Below, piece by piece: positions 2,570 through 22,923 of a DNA stretch of 64,000 nucleotides. A model generated the notes under the pieces. The model saw nothing but the letters and a program-made list of their open reading frames with translations. It was not told the DNA's origin and made no database searches. The DNA lies in the NCBI GenBank assembly GCA_947089915.1, contig CAMUMB010000001.1, positions 1,581-65,580 on the forward strand. The letters are read 5' to 3'. The first letter of the stretch is position 1, and every line of letters starts with the position of its first letter. The DNA is from an uncultured Bacillales bacterium (lineage in GTDB: Bacteria; Bacillota_I; Bacilli_A; RF39; UBA660). The translations under genes were made by a program, and so were the position numbers.

Positions 2570-3205
2570 TTAACCATTTATATTAATATTTCCTAATTTA
2601 TTATCTAATTTCTGTACAATTGTACCATAGCCTATGAAAAATATATAAATCATCAAACAATTTATAAAGACATTAAATAAGCCAAGTTTATCTACATCCA
2701 TATAAGAATATGGATACCTTGCCCCACCTTCAAATTCACCACCTAATAATACATAAACAATATTAAAAATTACATATACTAGTAGAATAAAACTCCAATA
2801 AAATGGATATTCCTTTTTTAGATGTCCTTTTTCCCCAAATATAATATAATCCAAGATTACCAATAAAGGAACATATAAATGAACAAAATTACATTCTAAC
2901 ATATGTCCTGCGTATGCACCTACGCCATCACCTGAGGATAGTAAAATTTGGTATACAAACATTGTGATTGTAATTGCCATTGTAACCATACCTTTTATGA
3001 TATAGTACCAATCATTCTTTTGCAATTTTTTTGTCAATTCCAATATTATAATCACAAAGAAAAACAAAAAGCATAATAAATTACTCTGGATTGTAAAATA
3101 GATAATTCCTTTTTCAAAAGATAATAACTTGAAATTCAAGTATAAACCAATTCCTGACATAACTACAATCAATATTTTAAATAAGAGTGATAATATTCTT
3201 TTCAT
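2570..3205 (-). CDS. Integral membrane protein of unknown function (6-7 TM)
   Basis: 211 aa, strongly hydrophobic with multiple TM helices. No catalytic motif recognised. Confidence 0.5.
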   Translation of the reverse strand: MKRILSLLFKILIVVMSGIGLYLNFKLLSFEKGIIYFTIQSNLLCFLFFFVIIILELTKKLQKNDWYYIIKGMVTMAITITMFVYQILLSSGDGVGAYAGHMLECNFVHLYVPLLVILDYIIFGEKGHLKKEYPFYWSFILLVYVIFNIVYVLLGGEFEGGARYPYSYMDVDKLGLFNVFINCLMIYIFFIGYGTIVQKLDNKLGNINING

Positions 3206-3313
3206 GCAACCATACCTTTTCTTCTATCATTATAGCCTATAAATGAAATTTGGTAAAGCCTACTTGATATTTAGTTAACACTTGCAACAGAAAAGCATGA
3301 ATAATTATCACGC

Positions 3314-5359
3314 CTATTTTTGTAAATATTTCTTTAAAATATTATGTAATTCATTACTATCAATTGGTTTCGATAAATAATCATCGAATCCAGATGCCAA
3401 ATAAGCTTCCTTCTTTCCTACAATCGCATCTGCTGTTAAAGCAATTACAGGTATATTAAATTTTTTATCTGCTTTTAACTGTTTTAATGTTTCTGTTCCA
3501 TCCATTTCTGGCATCATCTGATCTAATAGTATCAAATCATATGGATTTCCTTCTTGAATCAAATCAATACATTCTTGTCCACTTTCTACTTTATCAATGG
3601 TAACTTGATAAGGTTCTAGTAAACGCGTTGCGACTTTCAAATTGAGTTTATTATCATCTACAACAAGAATGCGTTTTCCAGAAGCATCAAAAGGAGTCGC
3701 TTTTCTTTTTCTTACCTTGTGAATACCCAAATCACCAATTGGTGTTTCATCAATGATTTTTTGCGTCACTGTTACAGAAATAGTCGTTCCTTTCCCAACA
3801 ACACTTTCAACGGTTAATTCTCCTTTTAACAAATCAATTAATTTCTTAACAATGGATAAACCTGTATTAGAAGTAATATTATCTGATAGAATTTCACTCA
3901 TCTTTTCTTGCGACATTCCCATACCTGTATCAGTTACTTCTAATGTCAATTTATAATTAGATTTTAATACTTCCCCTTTGGCTTTTAATGTAATTTGCCC
4001 AGCATCTGTATAACGAACGGCATTATCCAGTATATTGGTCATAATCTGACGGAACTTACCACCATCTCCTAACAAAGAAGTCGGAATACTTTCTTCTATC
4101 TCTGTTTGTAAATGAATTTCCTTCTTACCTATTCTTTCTTTGGTAAGGGCAATCAAATCTTTTAGTATTTTTGCAACATTGTATTCTTTTTCATCTAAAA
4201 CTAAAATACCCTTTTCTACTTTAGAAATATCTAGGATTCCATCAATAATTTCTAATAAGTTATTACTGGCACTATTGATATTATCCAAATCTTCTCGAAC
4301 GGGAGTAGATAGTTCCTCTTCCAAAGCCGATTCACTTAATCCAATAATGGCATTTAATGGTGTCCGAATTTCATGAGACATGATAGATAAAAATTCTGAT
4401 TTCGCATCATTTGCTTTCTCGGCTTGTTTTAGAGCATCTTGTAATAACGCATTTTGTCTTCTCATATATTCTGCGTTTTCAGTTACATTTTTAGTTAAAA
4501 TAGTAACTTTTGTCTCTCCTTTACTTACTGTAAAGAAAGCAGTACTTTCCAAATACGTATCTGGATTTTCTTTTAATCGGTAACGAACAGAAATTGGATC
4601 TAACGTTTCTTTTTCTACCAATTCTTTGAAATGATCCATAGAAAATATATCTAAAATAGATGCCTGATCTTCTTCTAATATATAACGGTCTACCATTTCT
4701 TGAAAAGTATGTTCAAATTCGCCAGTTGTATCATTTCCTAAATAAGTAGCATCTTCTTTTAATTTATGAAAATTCATTTCACCTGTTAATACATCTACAC
4801 TCATTTCCATATCATAAGAAATAGATGTAATTTGATTCAATTGTTGTTCTCTTGCTTTGATATCCTTAGTTTGAGATACGAGTAAATGTTGTTGATCATG
4901 TTCCGTTGTAACATCGGATACCAAAATTACATCGTATTGGGAATCACCCTCTAGAAATGGATAGATTTTAATTTTAATCCATCTTGTATGTTGATAAAGA
5001 GGATTGTGATAAGAAAACATTTGTGTTACATATTCTTTTATCCCATCCCAACTCCGTAATTCATTTTGTACAATTGGTGTATGAAAGATTTCTTCAATGA
5101 TTTCTAATTCTGTTTTTTCTTTTTCGATTTCATGCAACCCCAATACATCATATACATTTTTCGTAATATAAATAATATCCCGTTTGTTATGGTCACACAA
5201 AAGGTAAATCGTTTCCGAATTTTTGACAAGAGAATCAAATAATTTATTACGATAATGTCCGCCCTTATGTTTTAAAATACGATAAATAAGTATAACAAAA
5301 ACGAATAAAATAATTGCGATTAAAAAAAACATATTTCTATTCAGTCCATCCAATAACAT
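3314..5359 (-). CDS. Hybrid sensor histidine kinase / response regulator (N-terminal TM, PAS-like region, HisKA, HATPase_c, C-terminal receiver)
   Basis: H-box SHEIRTPLNAIIGLSE. N/G boxes NILDNAVRYT and DTGMGM. Receiver domain ILVVDDNKLNLKV...DLILLDQMMPEMDG...IPVIALTADA. SD AAAGGAG upstream of ATG. Confidence 0.85.
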   Translation of the reverse strand: MLLDGLNRNMFFLIAIILFVFVILIYRILKHKGGHYRNKLFDSLVKNSETIYLLCDHNKRDIIYITKNVYDVLGLHEIEKEKTELEIIEEIFHTPIVQNELRSWDGIKEYVTQMFSYHNPLYQHTRWIKIKIYPFLEGDSQYDVILVSDVTTEHDQQHLLVSQTKDIKAREQQLNQITSISYDMEMSVDVLTGEMNFHKLKEDATYLGNDTTGEFEHTFQEMVDRYILEEDQASILDIFSMDHFKELVEKETLDPISVRYRLKENPDTYLESTAFFTVSKGETKVTILTKNVTENAEYMRRQNALLQDALKQAEKANDAKSEFLSIMSHEIRTPLNAIIGLSESALEEELSTPVREDLDNINSASNNLLEIIDGILDISKVEKGILVLDEKEYNVAKILKDLIALTKERIGKKEIHLQTEIEESIPTSLLGDGGKFRQIMTNILDNAVRYTDAGQITLKAKGEVLKSNYKLTLEVTDTGMGMSQEKMSEILSDNITSNTGLSIVKKLIDLLKGELTVESVVGKGTTISVTVTQKIIDETPIGDLGIHKVRKRKATPFDASGKRILVVDDNKLNLKVATRLLEPYQVTIDKVESGQECIDLIQEGNPYDLILLDQMMPEMDGTETLKQLKADKKFNIPVIALTADAIVGKKEAYLASGFDDYLSKPIDSNELHNILKKYLQK

Positions 5360-13279: not shown

Positions 13280-14596
13280 CTATGATACTGATTCATCTGA
13301 TATAGATAATTCTATATTCTTTTTCTTCTTTTCTTTTTTCTTTTTATGTCTCGCTTCTATTGCGGAATCTTTTCTCTTTCCCTTTCTACAGATTACGATA
13401 ATTAAAATGAGTAATAGGAAAAGACAAACACCACCTAAGCATAGACCAATCAATTGATATAAGTTTTTTTCTTCTTCCATCAATTTTATTTCTTCATCAT
13501 AATAAATCTGTAATGTATTTTCTTCACTATTATATAAATAAAGATTTGCCTTTCCTGTTTCAACATTCATTCCATAGATAAGGGCATAGTTGGAAGATTC
13601 CTTTAATTTGTAAGCCGTCACTTCTTTATCATTAATTACAACAATAGATGCATGATAGCGTGCAGGTATTTCCTTTAATTTCATTGGATATAATACGATT
13701 CTTTGAAATGAAAATTCTTGGTATTCCTTGTAACTATTTGCCTCACTATCATAGATATAATAACCAATTGTACCAGTTTTATCTTTAAGACCAACTAATG
13801 TATAATTGGTAATTTCACTATAGTAGGCAGGGACTTCTTCCTCACCTATCATGACAATTGTTTCTACATAATTAGAAGGTGTGATTAATTCTGTCCGTTT
13901 ACGAACTACACTATAAGAACTACCATTGACATTTGCTTCAATGGGATTATATTCTTTGACATTTACATTGAGTACATAAGTTCTAGAATTTCCATTTTGA
14001 GCAGTCACTCTAATTTCAAATCGATTCGCACCCTCAATAACTTCTTTTTCCCCTAGTCCTTCTACACCTGCTGTCCCATCTTCTAGTGAACCTACAATAT
14101 TAATTTTGGTTGTTCCTGGTTCCATTTCTACTGCATATTCTAATTGTTCTTTATTGAATTCAGGAGAAATTCCTACACCTTCAATTCCTAAAGAAGATAA
14201 ATAATTATTAGAAGATAATACCACTACTGGTCTGTTTTTGACAGTAACTGTTACTGACTTTGATGCTGTGTAAGCCGAATTGGTTGAATAATCAGCGACA
14301 TCTTTTGGTATGACAGTAATTGTAGCACTTCCTGCGGCATTTGACTTAAATTTATATGTCACAGTTGCATCATCTATAAAATCGGAAGCAACCCCTCCTG
14401 ATAAAACTGCGCCATTAGAAGATGTAATTGAGAAATTACCAGCTAATCCTGATGCTTTCACCGTAACAACTATATCAGTTCCTACATAAGGAGACGTATT
14501 GCTTACATATACTTCTAAAGAACCAGCATTTACACTTTCACTATATAGGAAAAAAGCACCTAAAATAATAAATATACTACTAATTATTTTTTTCAT
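13280..14596 (-). CDS. Type I membrane / cell-surface protein with Ig-like and cadherin-like beta-sandwich domains, C-terminal TM helix and poly-Lys cytoplasmic tail
   Basis: Signal peptide MKKIISSIFIILGAFFLYSESVNA. Cadherin-like motif LSSLGIEGVGISPEF...RFEIRVTAQNGNSRTYVLNVNV. TM LYQLIGLCLGGVCLFLLLILIIV followed by RKGKRKD..KKKKEKKKK. Confidence 0.65.
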   Translation of the reverse strand: MKKIISSIFIILGAFFLYSESVNAGSLEVYVSNTSPYVGTDIVVTVKASGLAGNFSITSSNGAVLSGGVASDFIDDATVTYKFKSNAAGSATITVIPKDVADYSTNSAYTASKSVTVTVKNRPVVVLSSNNYLSSLGIEGVGISPEFNKEQLEYAVEMEPGTTKINIVGSLEDGTAGVEGLGEKEVIEGANRFEIRVTAQNGNSRTYVLNVNVKEYNPIEANVNGSSYSVVRKRTELITPSNYVETIVMIGEEEVPAYYSEITNYTLVGLKDKTGTIGYYIYDSEANSYKEYQEFSFQRIVLYPMKLKEIPARYHASIVVINDKEVTAYKLKESSNYALIYGMNVETGKANLYLYNSEENTLQIYYDEEIKLMEEEKNLYQLIGLCLGGVCLFLLLILIIVICRKGKRKDSAIEARHKKKKEKKKKNIELSISDESVS

Positions 14597-16503
14597 TCAA
14601 TCACACTATTCCCATTCATAATATAATTTTTAATATTAACATAATCTACTGCTGAAATTGTTCCATCTTGATTTACATCAGCAGCTAATTTATATGCCCC
14701 TGTTAAAGTAGAAGAAGCCATAATACAATTTTTTACTTGTACATAATCTACGGCAGATACTTTTCCATCACCATTGACATCACCGTAAATAACAATACGG
14801 AATGCTTTACTTTCTTGTCCATTTGAAACGGTTACAACATCTCCAGTTCCAAGGGCAGTTCCGTCTTTCAATTCAATGGTTTGATTGTTTACACTCCTTG
14901 TAACTGTCACAGATATATCTTGATTATTTCCTTTGATATTGGCAATTAGGGCTTGGGCAGATGTTCCTAATTTAATTTTGGAAATATAATCATTATTATA
15001 ACTATATGGCGAAGACTCTATAATATTCGTAATAGAAGAAACACGATTTTCTTCCTCTTCTTTGGCTTCTTCATCAATCTTATCTTTTGTTTCTTCATCT
15101 TCTATTGCTGGTAATAAAGAAGGTGTGTCTGGCATATTTTGATATACTGGAATTAAAAATTCAATTGCACTATCTAAAAGTCCATCTATTTTTGAATATG
15201 CCTCATAAGTAGATTTACCTTCTGACATTGGGGCTTGAATATTTGTCATATATTGATGAGAATAATTACCAGCATAATTACTTGTAACATTCCATTTTTT
15301 AAAATATAATGTATTTTGCTTTTTATTAATATAGGATTCTGCGATATAAGAAGCTCCATTTTTTATAGATAATTCAATTGTGGTCCAAGGCCGATTAAAT
15401 GAGGTAGTTTCTGATTCTGTTGCAATATATCCAGAAGCAAAATTAATTGCACAGGCAACTGGGTTAGCACAACTAGAGTTTGCTCCTAAATTGTATACGT
15501 TATAATAAGCTACATCATTAATTTTATTTGTCCCATTGGCAGAACCACTCAATTTTCCATCTGATAAAACAACTTCTTGTTTTGAGCTTGCTGCCAAATG
15601 CACTGGATTAATACTATTGCCATTATAAGTTGCAGCTTCTATATAGGTTTCTGCATATGGATATAAATCGGTATTTTTTAGCACATTTTGCACTACTTCT
15701 AATGTTTGATAGTTACTATTGTAACTTAAATTTTCAAACATAAAGATTTCTTTTTCTGCTAGAAAATTTCTAGGATCTAAATAGTAAGCTACCGTTTGTG
15801 CATTGGCAGCATACCAATTATTGGGTTCTTTAACAATATATTTTTGATTGATAGGATCATAAGATCCTTCTTCTAATGAAATATACTTTGTACCCTTTTC
15901 TAAATCGGTTATCTGAATATAACTCATTCCAACAATACTTTCGTTTTGAACAGATTCGTTCCAATCTAGATTGGTTTGGAAGGCTGTAAAAATCCAATTA
16001 GGATGTGCATCCTTGAGTAATGTTAATCTTTCAAAGTAACTTTCAGGAAAGCCTGCCTTTGTAAATTCTTCGGCATACTTACTTGTATCAACATCCGTTT
16101 TAACAGCATCAGCACAAACATACCCAGTTACTGCCCCAGATTTTGTTGTAATAAAAGTGACTTCCAAAAAGTGACTTTTACAGCTATCAATTGTAGATTC
16201 AACAGGATTATTATAGTTTTTTATTTTTACTTCATCACCTAAATCTAAACAATGTAAAGCTCCTGGTGCTGCATAATTACTATCATATTTTCCATTAACT
16301 TGATATAAGCAACCTTTCCCAGTCATGTCTATATTAGGTTCCTTTGTAATAACTAAATTTCCTTGTGTAATATAAGCAGGAATATTGGTTTTTTCTTCTT
16401 CCACTTCACTTGCAAGTATACTACATGGAAGTAAAAGAAAAATGAAAGACAAAATTAAGATATAATTTTTATTATTTTTCATTTTATCCCTTCTTTCTGC
16501 CAT
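14593..16503 (-). CDS. Secreted protein with C-terminal type I dockerin domain (two Ca-binding repeats)
   Basis: Signal peptide. C-terminal GDVNGDGKVSAVDYVQVKNCIM ... ADVNQDGTISAVDYVNIKNYIM matches the dockerin DxNxDGxxxxxD duplicated repeat. ATGA overlap with downstream gene. Confidence 0.7.
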   Translation of the reverse strand: MAERRDKMKNNKNYILILSFIFLLLPCSILASEVEEEKTNIPAYITQGNLVITKEPNIDMTGKGCLYQVNGKYDSNYAAPGALHCLDLGDEVKIKNYNNPVESTIDSCKSHFLEVTFITTKSGAVTGYVCADAVKTDVDTSKYAEEFTKAGFPESYFERLTLLKDAHPNWIFTAFQTNLDWNESVQNESIVGMSYIQITDLEKGTKYISLEEGSYDPINQKYIVKEPNNWYAANAQTVAYYLDPRNFLAEKEIFMFENLSYNSNYQTLEVVQNVLKNTDLYPYAETYIEAATYNGNSINPVHLAASSKQEVVLSDGKLSGSANGTNKINDVAYYNVYNLGANSSCANPVACAINFASGYIATESETTSFNRPWTTIELSIKNGASYIAESYINKKQNTLYFKKWNVTSNYAGNYSHQYMTNIQAPMSEGKSTYEAYSKIDGLLDSAIEFLIPVYQNMPDTPSLLPAIEDEETKDKIDEEAKEEEENRVSSITNIIESSPYSYNNDYISKIKLGTSAQALIANIKGNNQDISVTVTRSVNNQTIELKDGTALGTGDVVTVSNGQESKAFRIVIYGDVNGDGKVSAVDYVQVKNCIMASSTLTGAYKLAADVNQDGTISAVDYVNIKNYIMNGNSVIE

Positions 16504-16591
16504 AATTCGACTTTATTCCACATATATTATAGCAAAATTAAGGACATATGTACAGTATTTAGCAATAAAAAAAGAGTGGTTTACAAAAAAA

Positions 16592-16638
16592 GGAAAACCA
16601 TAGCACTATAGTTTTCCAAATGTATCCAATTTGGATAC
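16592..16638. promoter_or_regulatory. Two adjacent inverted repeats in divergent intergenic region (GGAAAAC-N12-GTTTTCC and the 17-bp palindrome GTATCCAATTTGGATAC). Candidate operator
   Basis: Perfect dyad symmetry, read directly from the sequence between the dockerin operon start and the pgsA-like gene. Confidence 0.35.
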
Positions 16639-16727
16639 ACTACAGTTTACGTTTCAAAGACTTTTTTTATGCAAAGAATTGATTATAATGAATGAATTTG
16701 TTAAAATAGACTTACTGGAGGACTCAT

Positions 16728-17426
16728 ATGAAAAAACTTAAAATAAATCAAAAAACAGGTAATTTAAAACAAATCATGAAAGAATATAAAAAATGGCTAC
16801 CCAATATGTTAACAGGAATGCGTATCGTTCTAACACCTATTATTATCGCTTTAGGCATCATGAAACAAATTGAGCTTGTCATTGTATTTGCAACACTAGC
16901 TGCGCTTACCGATTGTTTGGATGGCTTGTTAGCACGTAAATGGAATTCAGTAAGTGAAATAGGAGCCAAATTAGATGCGGTTGCGGATAAGATTTTTGCG
17001 ATTGGACTATGTCTTTGTCTCACTTCCCTATTTCCTATTTTATGGGCGGTTGTCGCTTTAGAAACAATTCTAGCAATTTGTAATTTAGTATTTCACTATA
17101 AAAGTAAAAAAACAGAGTCACTATGGATTGGTAAAATCAAAACTACAGTTTTATTTATTACAATTTTATTCGTTATATGTTATCACTTTTTACCTAGTTT
17201 AACAGGAATGGTACAAGGGCTTATTTATGTATGTATGAATTTACAAGTATTATGTATCATTGAGTACTCTTTCAATTTTTATGATAATATGCATCCTATT
17301 ACAGTGGAAGATAATAAAATGCATCAAGAAATTATGCAGGATGCAATGGAAGAAAAAACAATTGAAATCGAACATTTAGATGAACTCATTATGCAATACG
17401 ATGTTCAAGAAAAAGATACGCAGTAG
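16728..17426 (+). CDS. CDP-alcohol phosphatidyltransferase family protein (PgsA-like) with about 50-aa C-terminal extension
   Basis: Motif DGLLARKWNSVSEIGAKLDAVADK = DG-x2-AR-x8-G-x3-D-x3-D. Multiple TM helices. Confidence 0.75.
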   Translation: MKKLKINQKTGNLKQIMKEYKKWLPNMLTGMRIVLTPIIIALGIMKQIELVIVFATLAALTDCLDGLLARKWNSVSEIGAKLDAVADKIFAIGLCLCLTSLFPILWAVVALETILAICNLVFHYKSKKTESLWIGKIKTTVLFITILFVICYHFLPSLTGMVQGLIYVCMNLQVLCIIEYSFNFYDNMHPITVEDNKMHQEIMQDAMEEKTIEIEHLDELIMQYDVQEKDTQ

Positions 17427-17554
17427 TATTTTTTTTTATGTACTTTTCTACGCATATGTATTAACGGTTGGAATTGTTCTTGCATATTTTATTATGGAAA
17501 AGGAGGAATCCGCGTGACTGGGACTACTGGACCAACCGGATCATCGGAGAATTT

Positions 17555-18643
17555 ATGAAAGAGAAAAATTTAAAAATATGTGTATATACCATTTGTAAAA
17601 ATGAAGAACAATTTGTGAATCGTTGGGTAGATTCTATGCAAGAAGCAGATGCAATCTATGTACTGGATACAGGATCTACGGATCATACAGTAGAAATATT
17701 GAAGCAAAGAAATGTAAATGTAGAGACAAAGGTGATCACACCATGGAGATTTGATGTTGCAAGAAATCTTTCTTTGGATATGGTTCCAAGCGATACAGAT
17801 ATTTGTGTCTGTACAGATTTAGATGAAGTGTTTGAACCTGGTTGGCGTAAAAAATTAGAAGAAGCATGGGATGAAAATACAAAACATGCGAGATATAACT
17901 ATAATTGGAGCTTTGATGATAAAGGAGATCCTGCCGTTAATTTTTACATTGAAAAAATACATAGTCGAAATGAATATCGTTGGACACACCCTGTACATGA
18001 AGTATTACGTTATTTTGGTACAACAAAAGAAAATTTCATCACGATAGATAGTATTACACTCAATCATTATCCAGATCATTCCAAATCAAGATCCAGTTAT
18101 TTGCCTTTATTAGAATTATCGGTAGCAGAAGATCCAGAAGATGATCGTAATATGCATTATCTTGGAAGAGAATACATGTACTATGGAAAATGGAATGAAT
18201 GCATTGATACACTAATTCGTCATTTACATTTAAAAAGTGCTACATGGAAAGATGAGAGATGTGCCTCTATGCGTTTTATCGCAAGATCTTATCAATCATT
18301 AGAACGTTTTGATGAAGCAAAAATGTGGTTAGAAAAAGCGATAGAAGAAGCCCCCTATTTAAGAGATCCTTATGTAGAAAGGGCAATACTTGCCTATCAT
18401 TTAAAAGAATTTGATGATGTAATTACATATGGAAAACAGGCATTACAAATTCAAACACATGCTAAAACTTATATCAATGAACCATTTAGTTGGGATTCTA
18501 CTGTATATGATATTTTATCCATTGCATACTATTATCAAGGTGACTTAAAAAATGCAATTAAATATGTCAATTTTGCTTTAGATATGAATCCACAAGATGA
18601 AAGATTACTACAAAATAAACAGTTAATGGAAAAAGAGGATTAG
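17555..18643 (+). CDS. Family 2 glycosyltransferase with C-terminal TPR repeats
   Basis: N-terminal GT-A fold motifs (ICVYTICKNEE..., YVLDTGSTDHT). TPR-like helices in the C-terminal half. ATG at 17555 has GGAG RBS, while the ORF-track start at 17468 lacks one. Confidence 0.65.
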   Translation: MKEKNLKICVYTICKNEEQFVNRWVDSMQEADAIYVLDTGSTDHTVEILKQRNVNVETKVITPWRFDVARNLSLDMVPSDTDICVCTDLDEVFEPGWRKKLEEAWDENTKHARYNYNWSFDDKGDPAVNFYIEKIHSRNEYRWTHPVHEVLRYFGTTKENFITIDSITLNHYPDHSKSRSSYLPLLELSVAEDPEDDRNMHYLGREYMYYGKWNECIDTLIRHLHLKSATWKDERCASMRFIARSYQSLERFDEAKMWLEKAIEEAPYLRDPYVERAILAYHLKEFDDVITYGKQALQIQTHAKTYINEPFSWDSTVYDILSIAYYYQGDLKNAIKYVNFALDMNPQDERLLQNKQLMEKED

Positions 18644-18711
18644 ATTCCCCTTTTTTAATGATTAAAAGGGGCTGAGTAGAAATGAATAAATTCTATTCAG
18701 CCCCTCCTTTT

Positions 18712-19443
18712 TTATTGTAATTGAAATCGATAATGCCCTATAATTCCTTTTTTCTTACTCCATCTTTGTAATGTATCTTCTTCTAATTTAGGTTGTCCTG
18801 CATTATGTATCAAATAAGGAATCCCTTTGGAATTTCTCTTATCTGAAACAATGCCAATATGTTCACTTTTTCCAAATACAACAATATCTCCAGGTTGCCA
18901 CTCTTCTATTTTGGACAAATCATTTGTAAGTATAATAGTATTTCTTTGAAAATAAATATTTAAGTTCGTAACTCTTCTAAAATCAATATTAGGATCTATC
19001 TTTGTAATATTAGGATAAGCTTCCCTATTCTTTTCAATATCTTCTGAAACAAGATCTTTTAACGAATACCCAGCTTCTTTTAAGGCTCTCCAGATGACAT
19101 CTGTACAGACCCCCTCTGTTTCAGGCGGGTATCCACCACTATAATACTTACTCACATACTTTGGTTTAAGTTTTACCTCTTTTTTTGCACCATTTAAAAT
19201 ATCCATATAATCATCAATTCCATTTTGATTGTAATCAATTTCAGAATGAATGATATCGATATGAAAATCGGAGGCAATATAACTTTTTTTGGGAAGAAAT
19301 CTATAATAGTCTAGAACAAAAAGACCAATTAATATCAAAATAAATAAACCTACAAATAACAAGTAGAAAGAACGTTTCATATGATCACCTATTCCATTAT
19401 AACATGAAAAAAGCAAATCACATATGATCTGATTTGCTATCAA
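18712..19443 (-). CDS. Secreted/anchored protein, DUF1287-like (putative cell-wall-associated hydrolase fold)
   Basis: N-terminal TM/signal anchor. Conserved C/H residues (GVCTDVIW...HIGIV). Overlaps upstream gene by 4 nt. Confidence 0.45.
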   Translation of the reverse strand: MIANQIICDLLFSCYNGIGDHMKRSFYLLFVGLFILILIGLFVLDYYRFLPKKSYIASDFHIDIIHSEIDYNQNGIDDYMDILNGAKKEVKLKPKYVSKYYSGGYPPETEGVCTDVIWRALKEAGYSLKDLVSEDIEKNREAYPNITKIDPNIDFRRVTNLNIYFQRNTIILTNDLSKIEEWQPGDIVVFGKSEHIGIVSDKRNSKGIPYLIHNAGQPKLEEDTLQRWSKKKGIIGHYRFQLQ

Positions 19444-19706
19444 ATATTATTATGAATTTTTGATAATAATTCGTGTAATTGATTTAATTCTTCTTCAGAA
19501 AAATGAGATAATAATTCATTTGTATCTAATTCTTTGTTGTGATGTAATAAATGACCACATTTTCTTAAATCCATAATTACTTGTTCACCTGATGATTTAG
19601 GTTCATTATCGTTATTTTGTTTACCAAAATGTTCCATTCCTCTTCCACAGCTTAAATGATCTATGGAACAATGATTTGGACAACATGGACATTTTTCTTG
19701 ATTCAT
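19440..19706 (-). CDS. Small Cys/His-rich protein (88 aa), probable metal-binding
   Basis: CPCCPNHCSIDHLSCG and CGHLLHH clusters. GAAGGA RBS. Co-oriented and overlapping with the DUF1287-like gene. Confidence 0.45.
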   Translation of the reverse strand: MNQEKCPCCPNHCSIDHLSCGRGMEHFGKQNNDNEPKSSGEQVIMDLRKCGHLLHHNKELDTNELLSHFSEEELNQLHELLSKIHNNI

Positions 19707-19735
19707 ATTTTTTCCTTCTTTCTATTCATTTTAAA

Positions 19736-21670
19736 TTATTTGTTATTTATATAAATACATATCATCTGAGCAACCTGTTCATTTCCAATAGATGCATCTA
19801 TACACAAATCATAATTGTTTTTATCTCCCCATTTTTGGTTGGCAATTATACTATAATAATTGGATCTTGATTCATTAGAATCCATTATATGCTTCTTTGC
19901 ATCTTTCTCATTATCATTATAATTTTTCATCACATTTTTCACCTTATAATCCATAGGAGCATAAATAAATATTTTAATTAAACTTGGATTATTTCTTAAA
20001 ATATAGTCTGCAGATCTACCAACAATTACTGCACTACCCTGCTGTGCAATTGCTTCAATTACTTTTGCCTGATTTATAATGGCATCTTTATTGACATCCA
20101 AAGATAAATAGTTATCATATAATTCTTCTATATCATCTGTCCCATGTAACTGATTTCGAACGGCAAATTCCTTGATTTCCTCTTTATCATAAAATGGAAT
20201 ATTTAATTTTTTTGCTACTAATCTCGCAATCTCTTTTCCATTTGTTCCATGTTCCCTTGAAATAGAAATAATAAGATGATTGGATATTTTTGTATCACGA
20301 ATCGTCCCAATTTTAGCATGATAAGATTTTTTTAGAATCAATATGGAAATAAGTGCTGTTAAAATTTCTGAAATAGGGAATGTCCACCATACAATATTTA
20401 CAACTTCATCGGATAAAGTAAACAAATATGCTATTGGAAAAACAAACACCACTAATCTTAGGAAAGAAATCAAAAGAGGCCTTCCCGCATAATGAATGGA
20501 CTGTAATATTCCTTGAACAGCAATCGAAAAGCCCATAAATACAAATCCTAGGCTCGCAATTCTAAGAGCCTTCGTACAAACATGAATCATCTCTGCAGTA
20601 GTTCCTCCTGCAAGTCCAAAAAGTCCTGCAAGTGGATGTGCGAAAACTTCGAATAACACGGTTAAAAGAAAACTTACCATTGAAGTATCAATAATTCCAT
20701 ATTTGATACAATCATCAATTCTATTTTTATCTTTCATACCATAATTAAATGATAAGATTGATATGATTGTATTTGATAAGCCAAATGCTGAAAATAATGC
20801 GACTTGTTGGATTTTATAATAGATACCAAATGAGCCAATTAAGATCGTTTGATCTACTTCTGCAAGCCCTAAAATGGCGTTCATTCCTGCCATCATAACG
20901 GCAAGTAATCCCTGCATAATTGCCGCCGATATTCCAATGCTATAGATTCCCTTTATCAGTTTTCCATTCGGTTTTACATATTTTAAACTTCCATCAATTT
21001 CTTTGTTTTTTGTATAATGGAATAGCATAGCGATAAACAAGGAAACGAATTGCCCTATTATCGTAGCCCATGCAGCTCCAGCAACTCCCATATGAAGTGG
21101 ATAAATAAAGATATAATACAATATAATATTTACGCAGGCACCAGAAATTTGAGAAATAGTAGAAAGCATTGTTTTGCCTGTTGCTTATAGAAATCTCTCA
21201 TATACGGTATAACCGATAGATCCTAGTGATAGACAAGCACATATTTTTAAATAGGTTGTACCCATTTCAATAATTTCTTCCTTGTTTGTAAATAAAGAAA
21301 TAAACCATTCAGAACCAAACCAACCAAATAGTAAAAATACCAAGTAAATACAGATGCTTAAAAAAATCCCATTTCCAGCAACCCGATTCACCTTTTCTTG
21401 TTCTTTTTCTCCTAAACTTTTGGATAAGAGTGCATTTAACCCTACCCCAGTTCCAACTCCAATTGCAATAATCATAATTTGAATTGGAAATGAAAATGTT
21501 AATGCTTGATTGGCAATTGCTCCCTTAGTACCCATATTCGTAACAAAGATACTATCAATCACATTATATAATGCTTGTAATACCATAGAAACAATCATAG
21601 GTAGACCCATCTTCAAAAATAGTTTATTCATTGGAGCAACAGCCATCTTATTTTGCTTTTCTTCTTTCAT
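19736..21670 (-). pseudogene. MATE-family efflux transporter interrupted by one in-frame TAA (at 21185-21187) and fused at the C-terminus to a cytidylate-kinase-like (PF13189-type) domain
   Basis: ORFs 21185-21670 and 19736-21169 are in the same frame, separated only by TAA plus 5 codons (..YERFL*ATGKTMLS..). Together they make 12 TM helices. The C-terminal 180 aa (ISISREHGTNGKEIARLVAKKLNIPFYDKEEI...) resembles the cytidylate kinase-like family. Confidence 0.6.
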
Positions 21671-21815
21671 TTGAATCCTCCTTTACTAGGCGAGAAAAAA
21701 GAGCATAAACCCAAAACTGGATTTACGCTCTTTTAAAAGCCACTCGTCGTACAAGTATAGTATAACAAACTTTTCAATTTTTTTCAAACATGTTTTTAAA
21801 TTTTTACAAAATTGT

Positions 21816-22085
21816 TCACTTATCTTGATTTCGAAAAGGATGCTTTAGTTTATTTTTGATTTCTATTCTAATAATATTCATGGCTATTTCATATATTCGA
21901 TTTGCTTCAGAATTTTCAATCTGTAATTCGTTTATCAAATCTCTTATTATTTTATCTTTACTTTTTTTGCCAAACAAGGATGTACTTTCAAGAATATGAT
22001 TAATAATGATACATTTTTCTTTTTCATAATTTAATTGATTTTGAAGTTCTTGTATAAATTCTGTTTTATGCATTGTCATCGCCAT
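21816..22085 (-). CDS. Hypothetical small protein (89 aa)
   Basis: Complete ORF. Its start overlaps the end of the XRE regulator by 20 nt. Confidence 0.4.
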   Translation of the reverse strand: MAMTMHKTEFIQELQNQLNYEKEKCIIINHILESTSLFGKKSKDKIIRDLINELQIENSEANRIYEIAMNIIRIEIKNKLKHPFRNQDK

Positions 22086-22923
22086 ATATTTTTCCTTTCG
22101 AATCTAATTGAATTTGATAACCATATTCAAAAATATAGGATATACTGAAAATAATAATTCCAAAAATAATATCAATGAGTTCCAACTCTAACTCTAAATC
22201 AATACCTATTATTAATTGTAAAATGAATCCTAAAATATATGGAACAATCATATAAATTATAACATAAAAAGAAATTTTTCTAATGTAGTAAACATTATCC
22301 ATTGTAAAAGGTGTATCGCATTCATTGTTGTTTTTAAACAATTTGTATAAATAATTGGATATCATTCTTAATAGCAGTAACGAAATAATTAATCCCACTA
22401 AGACTATTTCAACATGAATTATGATCTCAGTATTCGTATGATGATCTAAATATTCTGCAACGATTGAGACTTCTGATTCCCTTATGTTTCCAATTACTGT
22501 ATCGTTTGATTTTAAAACATTTCCATCCACATGAATATTTTTGGAAATAAAAGGAACTACAATCATAACGATCAATAATATTCCTGCTCCAACCTCAGAT
22601 ACAATTCTCACAATTTTTGATAATACATAAATCACTTTACTTATCATTTTCATCTTTTTTTGTTTTTCTTTTTTAAACTTAACAACACTCATTTTAATCT
22701 CTTCATCTAATGAATCTATATCCGCAAAATTTTCATGAACCAAATCATTGATTTTACATTTAAAGATATCACATAAGCACATAATATTCTGCATACTTGG
22801 AAAATTCTCTCCAGTTTCCCATTTGGATATAGACTGCCTTGATACTCCAAGTTTTTCTGCAAGTTCTTCTTGTGATATTTTTTTATTTTTTCTAATTTGT
22901 TTCAGATTATCTCCGAATTTCAT
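22066..22923 (-). CDS. XRE-family HTH transcriptional regulator with C-terminal multi-TM domain
   Basis: N-terminal LKQIRKNKKISQEELAEKLGVSRQSISKWETGENFPS (Cro/C1 HTH), then 4-5 hydrophobic helices. AAAGGAG RBS. Confidence 0.75.
   Translation of the reverse strand: MKFGDNLKQIRKNKKISQEELAEKLGVSRQSISKWETGENFPSMQNIMCLCDIFKCKINDLVHENFADIDSLDEEIKMSVVKFKKEKQKKMKMISKVIYVLSKIVRIVSEVGAGILLIVMIVVPFISKNIHVDGNVLKSNDTVIGNIRESEVSIVAEYLDHHTNTEIIIHVEIVLVGLIISLLLLRMISNYLYKLFKNNNECDTPFTMDNVYYIRKISFYVIIYMIVPYILGFILQLIIGIDLELELELIDIIFGIIIFSISYIFEYGYQIQLDSKGKIYGDDNA

Follow-up and report, generated by a model that had tools for sequence, protein, structure and literature searches.

The MATE-PF13189 locus

The DNA analysed here, called the window, is a stretch of 64,000 nucleotides from contig CAMUMB010000001.1 of an uncultured Bacillales bacterium, with a GC content of 30.6% and nearly all of its long open reading frames (ORFs) on the minus strand. 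We are concerned with one gene of that strand, a MATE exporter gene extended by a C-terminal PF13189 domain and interrupted by an in-frame TAA, and with the conserved leader RNA in front of it. The features of both are collected in Table 1.

The interrupted gene appears as two ORFs of 161 and 477 amino acids. The first-pass annotation, made from the letters alone, had them in the same frame and parted by the TAA and five sense codons, and this is confirmed by translation: together they form a single frame of 645 codons with one internal stop, reading across the break ...GYTVYERFL*ATGKTMLSTISQ..., where the peptide past the stop begins ATGKTMLST. The Pfam model MatE (PF01554), with a cut-off of 24.9 bits, scores 82 bits in the 161-residue piece and 46.4 bits in the 477-residue piece. 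The annotation's placement of the junction midway through the 12-helix fold was mistaken. By hydropathy and by alignment to DinF-BH, the break follows approximately the fourth transmembrane helix (TM4) and precedes TM5, and so it falls in the TM4–TM5 loop, inside the N-lobe. The ATG that opens the second ORF is preceded by AGG only, without a good Shine–Dalgarno sequence.

The leader occupies 21752-21695 on the minus strand, 5' of the gene and beyond the interval to which attention had been drawn at first. Two conserved sequence blocks of the leader are embedded in and beside an intrinsic terminator, whose hairpin has a folding energy of -30.1 kcal/mol (z -3.9).

Table 1. Features of the split MATE-PF13189 gene and its leader, in window coordinates (RBS, ribosome binding site)
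Feature	Positions	Strand	Evidence
Sigma-70-type promoter: TTGAAA, 17-nt spacer, TATACT, extended -10 TG	21759..21787	-	Sequence
Conserved aptamer-like motif, ~40 nt; helix P1 (GAC with GUU), helix P2 (GC with GC) closing a variable linker	21711..21752	-	Covariance model R1, covariation
Block 1 of motif: ACGAGUGGC	21739-21747	-	Coordinates on window
Block 2 of motif: GCGUAAAUCCAG	21717-21728	-	Coordinates on window
Intrinsic terminator, 17-bp hairpin and U6, between promoter and RBS; 5' arm is block 2	21695..21734	-	Folding
RBS AAGGAGG (21677-21683) and start ATG (21668-21670) of MATE-PF13189 gene	21668..21683	-	Sequence
N-terminal fragment of MATE-PF13189 gene, 161 aa, ~TM1-TM4, ending at premature TAA	21185..21670	-	ORF list, Pfam, DinF-BH alignment, hydropathy
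Premature TAA, codon 162, replacing invariant Gln (ancestral CAA, C-to-T transition)	21185..21187	-	Orthologue alignment, orthologous codons, intact allele P0123
Sense codons GCA ACA GGC AAA ACA (A-T-G-K-T), ancestral coding sequence	21170..21184	-	Translation; QATGKTM peptide in orthologues
ATG opening 477-aa ORF, 15 nt past stop	21167..21169	-	ORF list
C-terminal fragment, 477 aa, ~TM5-TM12 and cytoplasmic PF13189 domain	19736..21169	-	ORF list, Pfam, DinF-BH alignment, hydropathy
TAT, Tyr185; Asp in all orthologues (DinF-BH D184 equivalent, TM5)	21116..21118	-	Alignments, intact allele
PF13189 (Cytidylate_kin2) domain, NMP-kinase-like fold, degenerate Walker A SREHGTNGKE	19790..20272	-	Pfam, PDB matches, family motifs

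A Recent Nonsense Mutation

When the stop is read as Gln, the joined protein matches more than 120 clusters of uninterrupted proteins, 644-651 residues long, 78-85% identical over 100% of the length and carrying both PF01554 and PF13189. In an alignment of the window protein with 11 orthologues (alignment A1), the TAA stands in place of Gln162, which is invariant within the peptide ERFLQATGKT. The orthologous codon is CAA in 34 loci and CAG in 17, accounting for 51 of 51, and a stop occurs in 0 of 51; the window allele is therefore one C-to-T transition away from CAA. A CAA-to-TAA mutation was among the explanations first offered for the stop, and it is the one borne out by these codons, by the uninterrupted clusters, and by an intact allele at 96% identity. 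That allele (P0123, 647 residues) has both Q162 and D185 and lies on contigs from runs SRR15970524 and SRR15970521, where it shares with the window a gene order of HTH regulator, 89-residue ORF, MATE-PF13189, 88-residue Cys-rich ORF and DUF1287. The region is 94.3% identical in DNA between the split allele and P0123. The ratio dN/dS between the two alleles is 0.083 over the whole gene (0.12 in the N part, 0.05 in TM5-12, codons 163-455, and 0.11 in the PF13189 part) and ranges from 0.0 to 0.27 in the neighbouring genes, which indicates purifying selection on the gene until very recently. A long-standing pseudogene is rejected on the same ratio and on the closeness of the intact allele.

The differences between the two alleles were polarised with eight outgroups, which assigned 11 derived amino-acid changes to the window branch and 5 to its sister. 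Five of the window-branch changes fall at sites invariant in 8/8 outgroups: A60S, Q162stop, D185Y, F444L and K600E. Tyr185 aligns with D184 of DinF-BH, and Asp is found there in all orthologues and in the 96%-identical allele, and D185Y is probably a second lineage-specific, inactivating change. Between the broken and the intact allele the leader has hardly changed, as would fit a recent inactivation of the gene. Judged by these comparisons, the TAA is a recent, lineage-specific nonsense mutation that has most likely made a null allele, a young pseudogene, of the window gene.

Three other accounts of the stop have to be weighed. The one that survives best, and which we nonetheless consider improbable, is that the split gene still works, with reinitiation at the ATG and co-assembly of a TM1-4 polypeptide with a TM5-12 plus PF13189 polypeptide. 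The ATG lies just 5 codons past the stop, and split membrane transporters such as the halves of LacY are able to co-assemble. The AGG in front of it, however, is no proper Shine–Dalgarno sequence, the nucleotides there being ancestral coding sequence shared with intact orthologues, and the break lies within the N-lobe rather than between the lobes. Both fragments are open and otherwise well conserved, and no fewer than two independent samples carry the allele; yet the TM5 Asp is gone as well (D185Y), and more than 120 clusters and 80 loci contain no orthologue split at the same position.

A sequencing or assembly error over a true CAA has very little in its favor beyond the single-base difference from the orthologous codon and the probable origin of the window in a metagenome-derived assembly. 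The same base is present in two assemblies (ENA and Logan) of the mouse gut metagenome run DRR014785, whose contigs encode the split-gene fragments identically (L081 and L082), and in the independent run SRR24860719 (contig L084). Over the 1072 nt that include the site, this contig matches the window at 100%, from the N-terminal fragment through the TAA to residue 130 of the downstream ORF. The same two fragment products are also encoded on a 66.5-kb NCBI contig. This disposes of the error that had been suspected initially. Decoding of the TAA by programmed read-through, reassignment or suppression, also among the early suggestions, is the least credible account: the frame is intact past the stop, yet the stop is conserved in no orthologue, TAA is used more often than any other genuine stop in the window (closing 27 of 48 long minus-strand ORFs), no other interrupted gene is found there, the sole other same-frame pair of long ORFs parted by one stop is the two normal genes ruvA and ruvB, of which ruvA itself ends in TAA, the 64-kb window contains neither a tRNA gene that could act as a suppressor nor a tmRNA gene, and no bacterial genetic code is known to reassign TAA.

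Taken by itself, the nonsense allele is an ordinary finding and a minor one. The lineage carrying it is near-clonal and from the mouse gut. As a separate observation, the MATE orthologues in four other metagenome-assembled genomes (L044, L045, L055 and L068) are broken elsewhere, in L055 by a stop within the frame and in the other three by frameshifts. Either assembly errors or recurrent loss of the pump may account for this.

The Exporter and Its PF13189 Domain

Residues 5-448 of the joined protein align to residues 6-440 of DinF-BH (4lz6/5c6o) with an E-value of ~1e-36, and the hydropathy peaks fit 12 TM helices. The alignment to PfMATE (3vvn) has an E-value of 1e-31, and an orthologue (P0001) scores 164.3 bits on TIGR00797, where the cut-off is 147.4. 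By these matches, the intact orthologue is predicted to be a DinF-subfamily MATE exporter of ~645 residues with 12 TM helices and a cytoplasmic C-terminal PF13189 domain, and it is widespread in gut Bacillota. The N-lobe acidic pair is half preserved in the window protein: the TM1 Asp is kept (D39), and the TM5 Asp is lost at position 185. The termini of MATE proteins are cytoplasmic; therefore, the PF13189 domain would sit under the membrane.

The Pfam model PF13189 (Cytidylate_kin2), with a cut-off of 28 bits, recognizes the domain itself in the downstream ORF (residues 300-460) and scores 134.9-139.1 bits there (E 4e-39). This is where the first-pass annotation had put a cytidylate-kinase-like domain, and that assignment holds. 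The structures matched in the PDB are 3fdi (E 3.5e-21) and 3hdt (E 2.6e-17), and the family motifs SRExGxxG, VIVGRxADYIL, D..R..YY and WG...NY are kept. The curated (d)CMP kinase model TIGR02173 gives 38.8 bits, well below its cut-off of 102.1. The Walker A pattern GxxxxGK[S/T] is not found: the window reads ISREHGTNGKEIA (HGTNGKE) and the family GSGG[R/K/H], without the canonical Lys and Ser/Thr, so the domain does lack a canonical P-loop, as had been said of it. On the score and on Walker A, the domain does not appear to be a bona fide Cmk.

The fusion, at first thought unusual, turns out to be common. Besides the more than 120 intact clusters, which supply many other cases of a MATE joined to a cytidylate-kinase-like domain, an in-frame fusion is present in ~22 of 80 species-level loci, while 8 loci have the two as adjacent separate genes and the remainder have MATE alone. 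Where separate, the PF13189 gene lies directly 3' of MATE (gaps of 0-140 nt) or, in one locus (L053), directly 5', so that adjacency occurs in either order. This Rosetta-stone pattern of fused or adjacent genes argues for a functional partnership of pump and PF13189. An exhaustive, profile-free search with the domain returned 5399 clusters at 50% identity, 2003 of them at E up to 1e-10; the best 150 representatives are mostly stand-alone proteins of ~200 residues, and ~18 are of 640-690 residues with the domain C-terminal. In one further locus (L072, minus strand, 2880-5015), an unrelated or distant MATE, scoring 115 on the hidden Markov model of this clade, is fused to PF13189 in a protein of 712 residues. 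This suggests that the fusion may have arisen more than once. No paper discussing a MATE-PF13189 fusion was found in the searchable literature. The fusion is populous and is already visible in precomputed Pfam annotation; the functional linkage is solid and is not new to databases.

As to what the module does, the role of an accessory or regulator that binds a ligand or nucleotide is weakly favored over that of a classical kinase, because the canonical Walker A Lys and Ser/Thr are lacking; possibly it is instead an atypical phosphotransferase acting on the pump substrate. Two published data sets touch on the pairing. In Fusobacterium nucleatum, a cytidylate-kinase-like gene and an RND pump have locus tags two positions apart (PMC9848294), and the largest families in an atlas of gut colonisation factors include both 'MATE efflux' and 'cytidylate kinase-like' (PMC13601570).

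A Conserved Leader RNA

The motif in the leader was found in 73 genome loci and in more than 120 metagenome loci; a comparison of upstream regions had it in 69 of 81 loci. By their record titles, the carriers include Clostridia, Lachnospiraceae, Oscillospiraceae/Ruminococcus, Christensenellaceae, Erysipelotrichaceae, Anaeroplasmataceae and Bacilli. The consensus is NYGNGYNRC for block 1 and GYGUAARUCCRR for block 2, which form an internal loop of 5'-GNGYN against 5'-GUAARUCCR.

Base pairs were counted in 66 unique leaders, with the positions (numbered within block 1, B1, and block 2, B2) set by invariant anchors alone. Eight nucleotides are invariant, among them G3, G5, U4'A5'A6' and C9'C10'. 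In helix P2, the pair B1:9-B2:1 is formed in 66/66 and B1:8-B2:2 in 64/66 (GC 49, AU 12, GU 3). A cross-loop pair, B1:6-B2:7, is formed in 66/66 (UA 29, UG 24, CG 13), and C-A never occurs there. In helix P1, B1:2-B2:12 is formed in 66/66 (CG 35, UA 22, UG 9), B1:1-B2:13 in 65/66 (AU 41, UA 12, GC 7, CG 4) and B1:0-B2:14 in 57/66. In a plain MAFFT alignment (A2), 91.8% of the cells of the seven-pair structure are paired, as opposed to 74.7% in shuffles. Its covariation score, 0.669 versus 0.326 in shuffles, is reached by 0 of 500 of them. Double, compensatory changes are found in 7/7 pairs, and controls with the pairing slid out of register reach at most 43%. The comparative support for a cis-regulatory RNA is accordingly strong. 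The alternative of a DNA operator with an inverted repeat is rejected on the variable spacing of the arms and on the confinement of G·U wobbles to the 3' arm.

A covariance model built from A2 (R1) was run on 849 kb, both strands. All of its matches lie just upstream of a MATE gene on the coding strand, with the exception of one locus where the distance is ~750 nt (L041), and there is one match per locus except for two in L059. The window has a single match, of 30.1 bits (E 5e-4). Metagenome contigs were scanned with a fixed pattern for one common variant of the motif, and this is the scan that gave the more than 120 metagenome loci, the majority of them from human gut. The gene downstream is a MATE of this clade in 86 loci and a major facilitator superfamily (MFS) transporter in 4. 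The others are a 1220-residue CarD-like/PLD-nuclease/helicase/DUF3427 protein directly downstream in 2 (L158/L188), the O6-methylguanine-DNA methyltransferase gene ogt in 2 (L121/L165; ~180 nt away and possibly with its own promoter), yqeY in 1 (L095, after a tandem motif pair) and a PF13189 gene in 1. A separate first-pass listing adds a NUDIX hydrolase gene ~336 nt downstream of the motif in L151. Of the 86 MATE loci, 57 carry the aptamer-like motif in tandem and 1 carries it in triplicate.

The motif is combined with the terminator in two ways. In platform type A, to which the window belongs, block 2 serves as the terminator's 5' arm and pairs, with G·U wobbles, with a complementary 3' arm across loops that vary. 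In type B, the 5' arm is built from block 1 and the linker, and block 2 lies in the terminator loop. In both types, as drawn from the sequences, the aptamer fold and the terminator would be mutually exclusive. This exclusion predicts an ON switch, which would fit an exporter of a toxic ligand.

Interpretation of the Leader

The following mechanism would account for these features. In the intact relatives, transcription would begin ~80 nt upstream of the gene and meet the intrinsic terminator. The 5' arm of that terminator would double as half of the aptamer with its conserved internal loop. Stabilisation of this aptamer, presumably through a small molecule of the cytoplasm, would block the terminator and allow the exporter and its kinase-like partner to be made. 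In the window allele, translation would end after 161 residues.

We place the probability of the combined reading, namely a recent nonsense null allele of a widespread MATE-PF13189 fusion, preceded by an aptamer/terminator leader that would act as an ON switch, at roughly 85%. Several points weigh against it. The ATG 15 nt past the TAA leaves room for low-level reinitiation, and the excess of 11 over 5 derived changes on the window branch is without statistical significance. The equivalent of D184 is presumed, on the model of PfMATE and DinF-BH, to be one of the two conserved N-lobe aspartates needed for transport. The window copy of the motif is the lowest-scoring clear match to R1, and its P1 has just 3 bp. 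RNAalifold on A2 recovers P2 only (2 bp), with a consensus energy near zero, so that P1 and the cross-loop pair are drawn from covariation alone. The large internal loop is unstable by nearest-neighbour rules, which is often the case in ligand-dependent aptamers. Finally, the leader is possibly a protein-dependent attenuator, an alternative discussed below.

The more specific proposal is that the leader represents an undescribed riboswitch class: a ~40-nt terminator-embedded aptamer, often in tandem, that would switch on DinF-type MATE or MFS exporters and a co-transcribed PF13189 partner for a cytoplasmic small molecule across Clostridia, Erysipelotrichales and related gut Bacillota. We put this forward tentatively, at a little short of even odds. 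What makes the leader a riboswitch candidate is the invariant bases of the internal loop, the use of two platforms on one core, the frequent tandems, the two unrelated exporter families, and the lack of a co-conserved regulator gene.

It competes with a reading that we regard as somewhat less likely, in which the leader is the site of a trans-acting protein or RNA, in the manner of PyrR- or LicT-type attenuation, or is merely a conserved terminator. In favor of this reading are the weak thermodynamic consensus fold and the occurrence of tandem sites in protein-mediated attenuators too. Against it, no regulator gene is co-conserved beside the motif in the 80 loci, where the neighbours vary, eight invariant nucleotides lie in an internal loop between covarying helices, and the motif occurs with two terminator designs and two unrelated exporter families (MATE and MFS). 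A plain terminator would need neither the conserved sequence of the 5' arm nor the upstream block 1. Ribosome-mediated attenuation by a leader peptide is rejected on the absence of any ATG or upstream ORF from the 80-nt leader.

The novelty of the riboswitch candidate is claimed provisionally. At the gathering score, Rfam 15 has 0 matches in the 64-kb window, and this includes guanidine-I to -III, PyrR, preQ1 and NMT1. At E up to 10, three leaders (those of the window, L029 and L152) give generic hairpin matches only, with the alignments confined to the terminator stem. PyrR (19 bits), EF3314_EF3315, SQ1002 and miRNAs among these were rejected as chance hairpin-like matches, the terminator stem alone being aligned. 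In openly searchable full text, nothing relevant was found on the motif strings, on riboswitch candidates associated with MATE genes or on PF13189.

Some clue to the ligand possibly lies in the non-transporter neighbours (Ogt, NUDIX, CarD-like/helicase and YqeY). It is speculation on our part that the exporters, together with the occasional Ogt and NUDIX, hint at a toxic or damaged nucleobase-like compound as a candidate ligand. The conserved terminator-embedded leader is to us the most interesting object at the locus, and a new riboswitch class is a plausible identity for it. In gut Bacillota, the MATE pumps of this clade rank with the most abundant gene families, and if the leader is indeed a riboswitch, its ligand would reveal the substrate of this efflux-pump family and a role for PF13189. 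It would offer an experimental route to what the pump exports, to the reason a degenerate NMP-kinase-like module travels with it, and to a toxic metabolite sensed by gut anaerobes. The motif is present in the cultured Frisingicoccus caecimuris DSM 28559 (contig NZ_SLXA01000011.1, locus L049, 5899-5936), and so the question is testable.

Neighbouring Genes

An 88-residue Cys/His-rich ORF (MNQEKCPCCPNHCSIDHLSCGRG..., 19440-19706, minus strand) begins 29 nt past the stop of the MATE-PF13189 gene, and at its other end the stop region shares 4 nt with the start of the DUF1287 gene. The ORF has no Pfam match, its synteny is kept in three related contigs (L081, L085 and L086), and its dN/dS is 0.27. 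It may be co-transcribed with the pump.

The contig L081 of DRR014785 is 99.94% identical to the window from 13735 to 22270 and then diverges, inside the ORF at 22066-22923 that encodes an HTH_3 regulator. Past the divergence, in positions 1-4899 of L081, there are phage-like genes (tape-measure TMP_3 and HK97-gp10-like) and a RelB/YafQ toxin–antitoxin pair. In the related locus L085, the 285-residue regulator is intact, the same as in the window. This suggests that the junction near 22270 is either a strain-specific insertion or recombination junction or the product of chimeric assembly.

Comparison with Known Systems

The transporter part resembles DinF-BH (PDB 4LZ6, 5C6O) and PfMATE (3VVN) in aligning with them end to end and in having two MatE repeats, and D39 of the window protein, the TM1 Asp, corresponds to D40 of DinF-BH. 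It differs from them in the ~185-residue cytoplasmic PF13189 domain added after TM12, and in that the window gene is stopped at codon 162 and has Tyr in place of the TM5 Asp equivalent to D184. The stand-alone PF13189 proteins of known structure, 3FDI ('uncharacterized protein') and 3HDT ('putative kinase'), have the signature motifs in common with the window domain; they are separate proteins of ~200 residues, whereas the window domain is covalently fused to a transporter. To Cmk and the archaeal (d)CMP kinase of TIGR02173 there is a weak similarity over the whole domain, and the Gly-Arg of the NMP-binding strand is kept (VIVGR). The differences are the missing canonical Lys and Ser/Thr of Walker A and a score far under the cut-off.

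For the leader, there are two known systems of similar design. In the HMP-PP riboswitch (thiS motif), conserved nucleotides within the terminator stem serve as the aptamer (10.1101/2020.10.21.349134), and the window leader likewise has its aptamer nucleotides in the terminator stem. That riboswitch differs in being associated with thiamin biosynthesis genes, and the leaders have no match to it in Rfam at E up to 10. The guanidine-IV riboswitch (mepA motif) and its Gd4v variant are found in short leaders before mepA-like MATE genes in Firmicutes (10.1101/2020.10.21.349134, PMC9788692). Guanidine-IV has two hairpins whose conserved loops meet in a kissing loop or pseudoknot (Clostridium botulinum sequence, PMC11611296 supplement), whereas the window motif is a single hairpin in which P1 and P2 close an asymmetric internal loop, and lacks an association with SugE/EmrE genes. 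We rejected guanidine-IV and Gd4v as the identity of the leader, because the second conserved-loop hairpin is absent, the terminator loops are variable, and the sequence is unlike the C. botulinum representative. What guanidine-IV and Gd4v share with the window leader is the principle: an aptamer partly embedded in an intrinsic terminator, for which a transcriptional ON switch is predicted.

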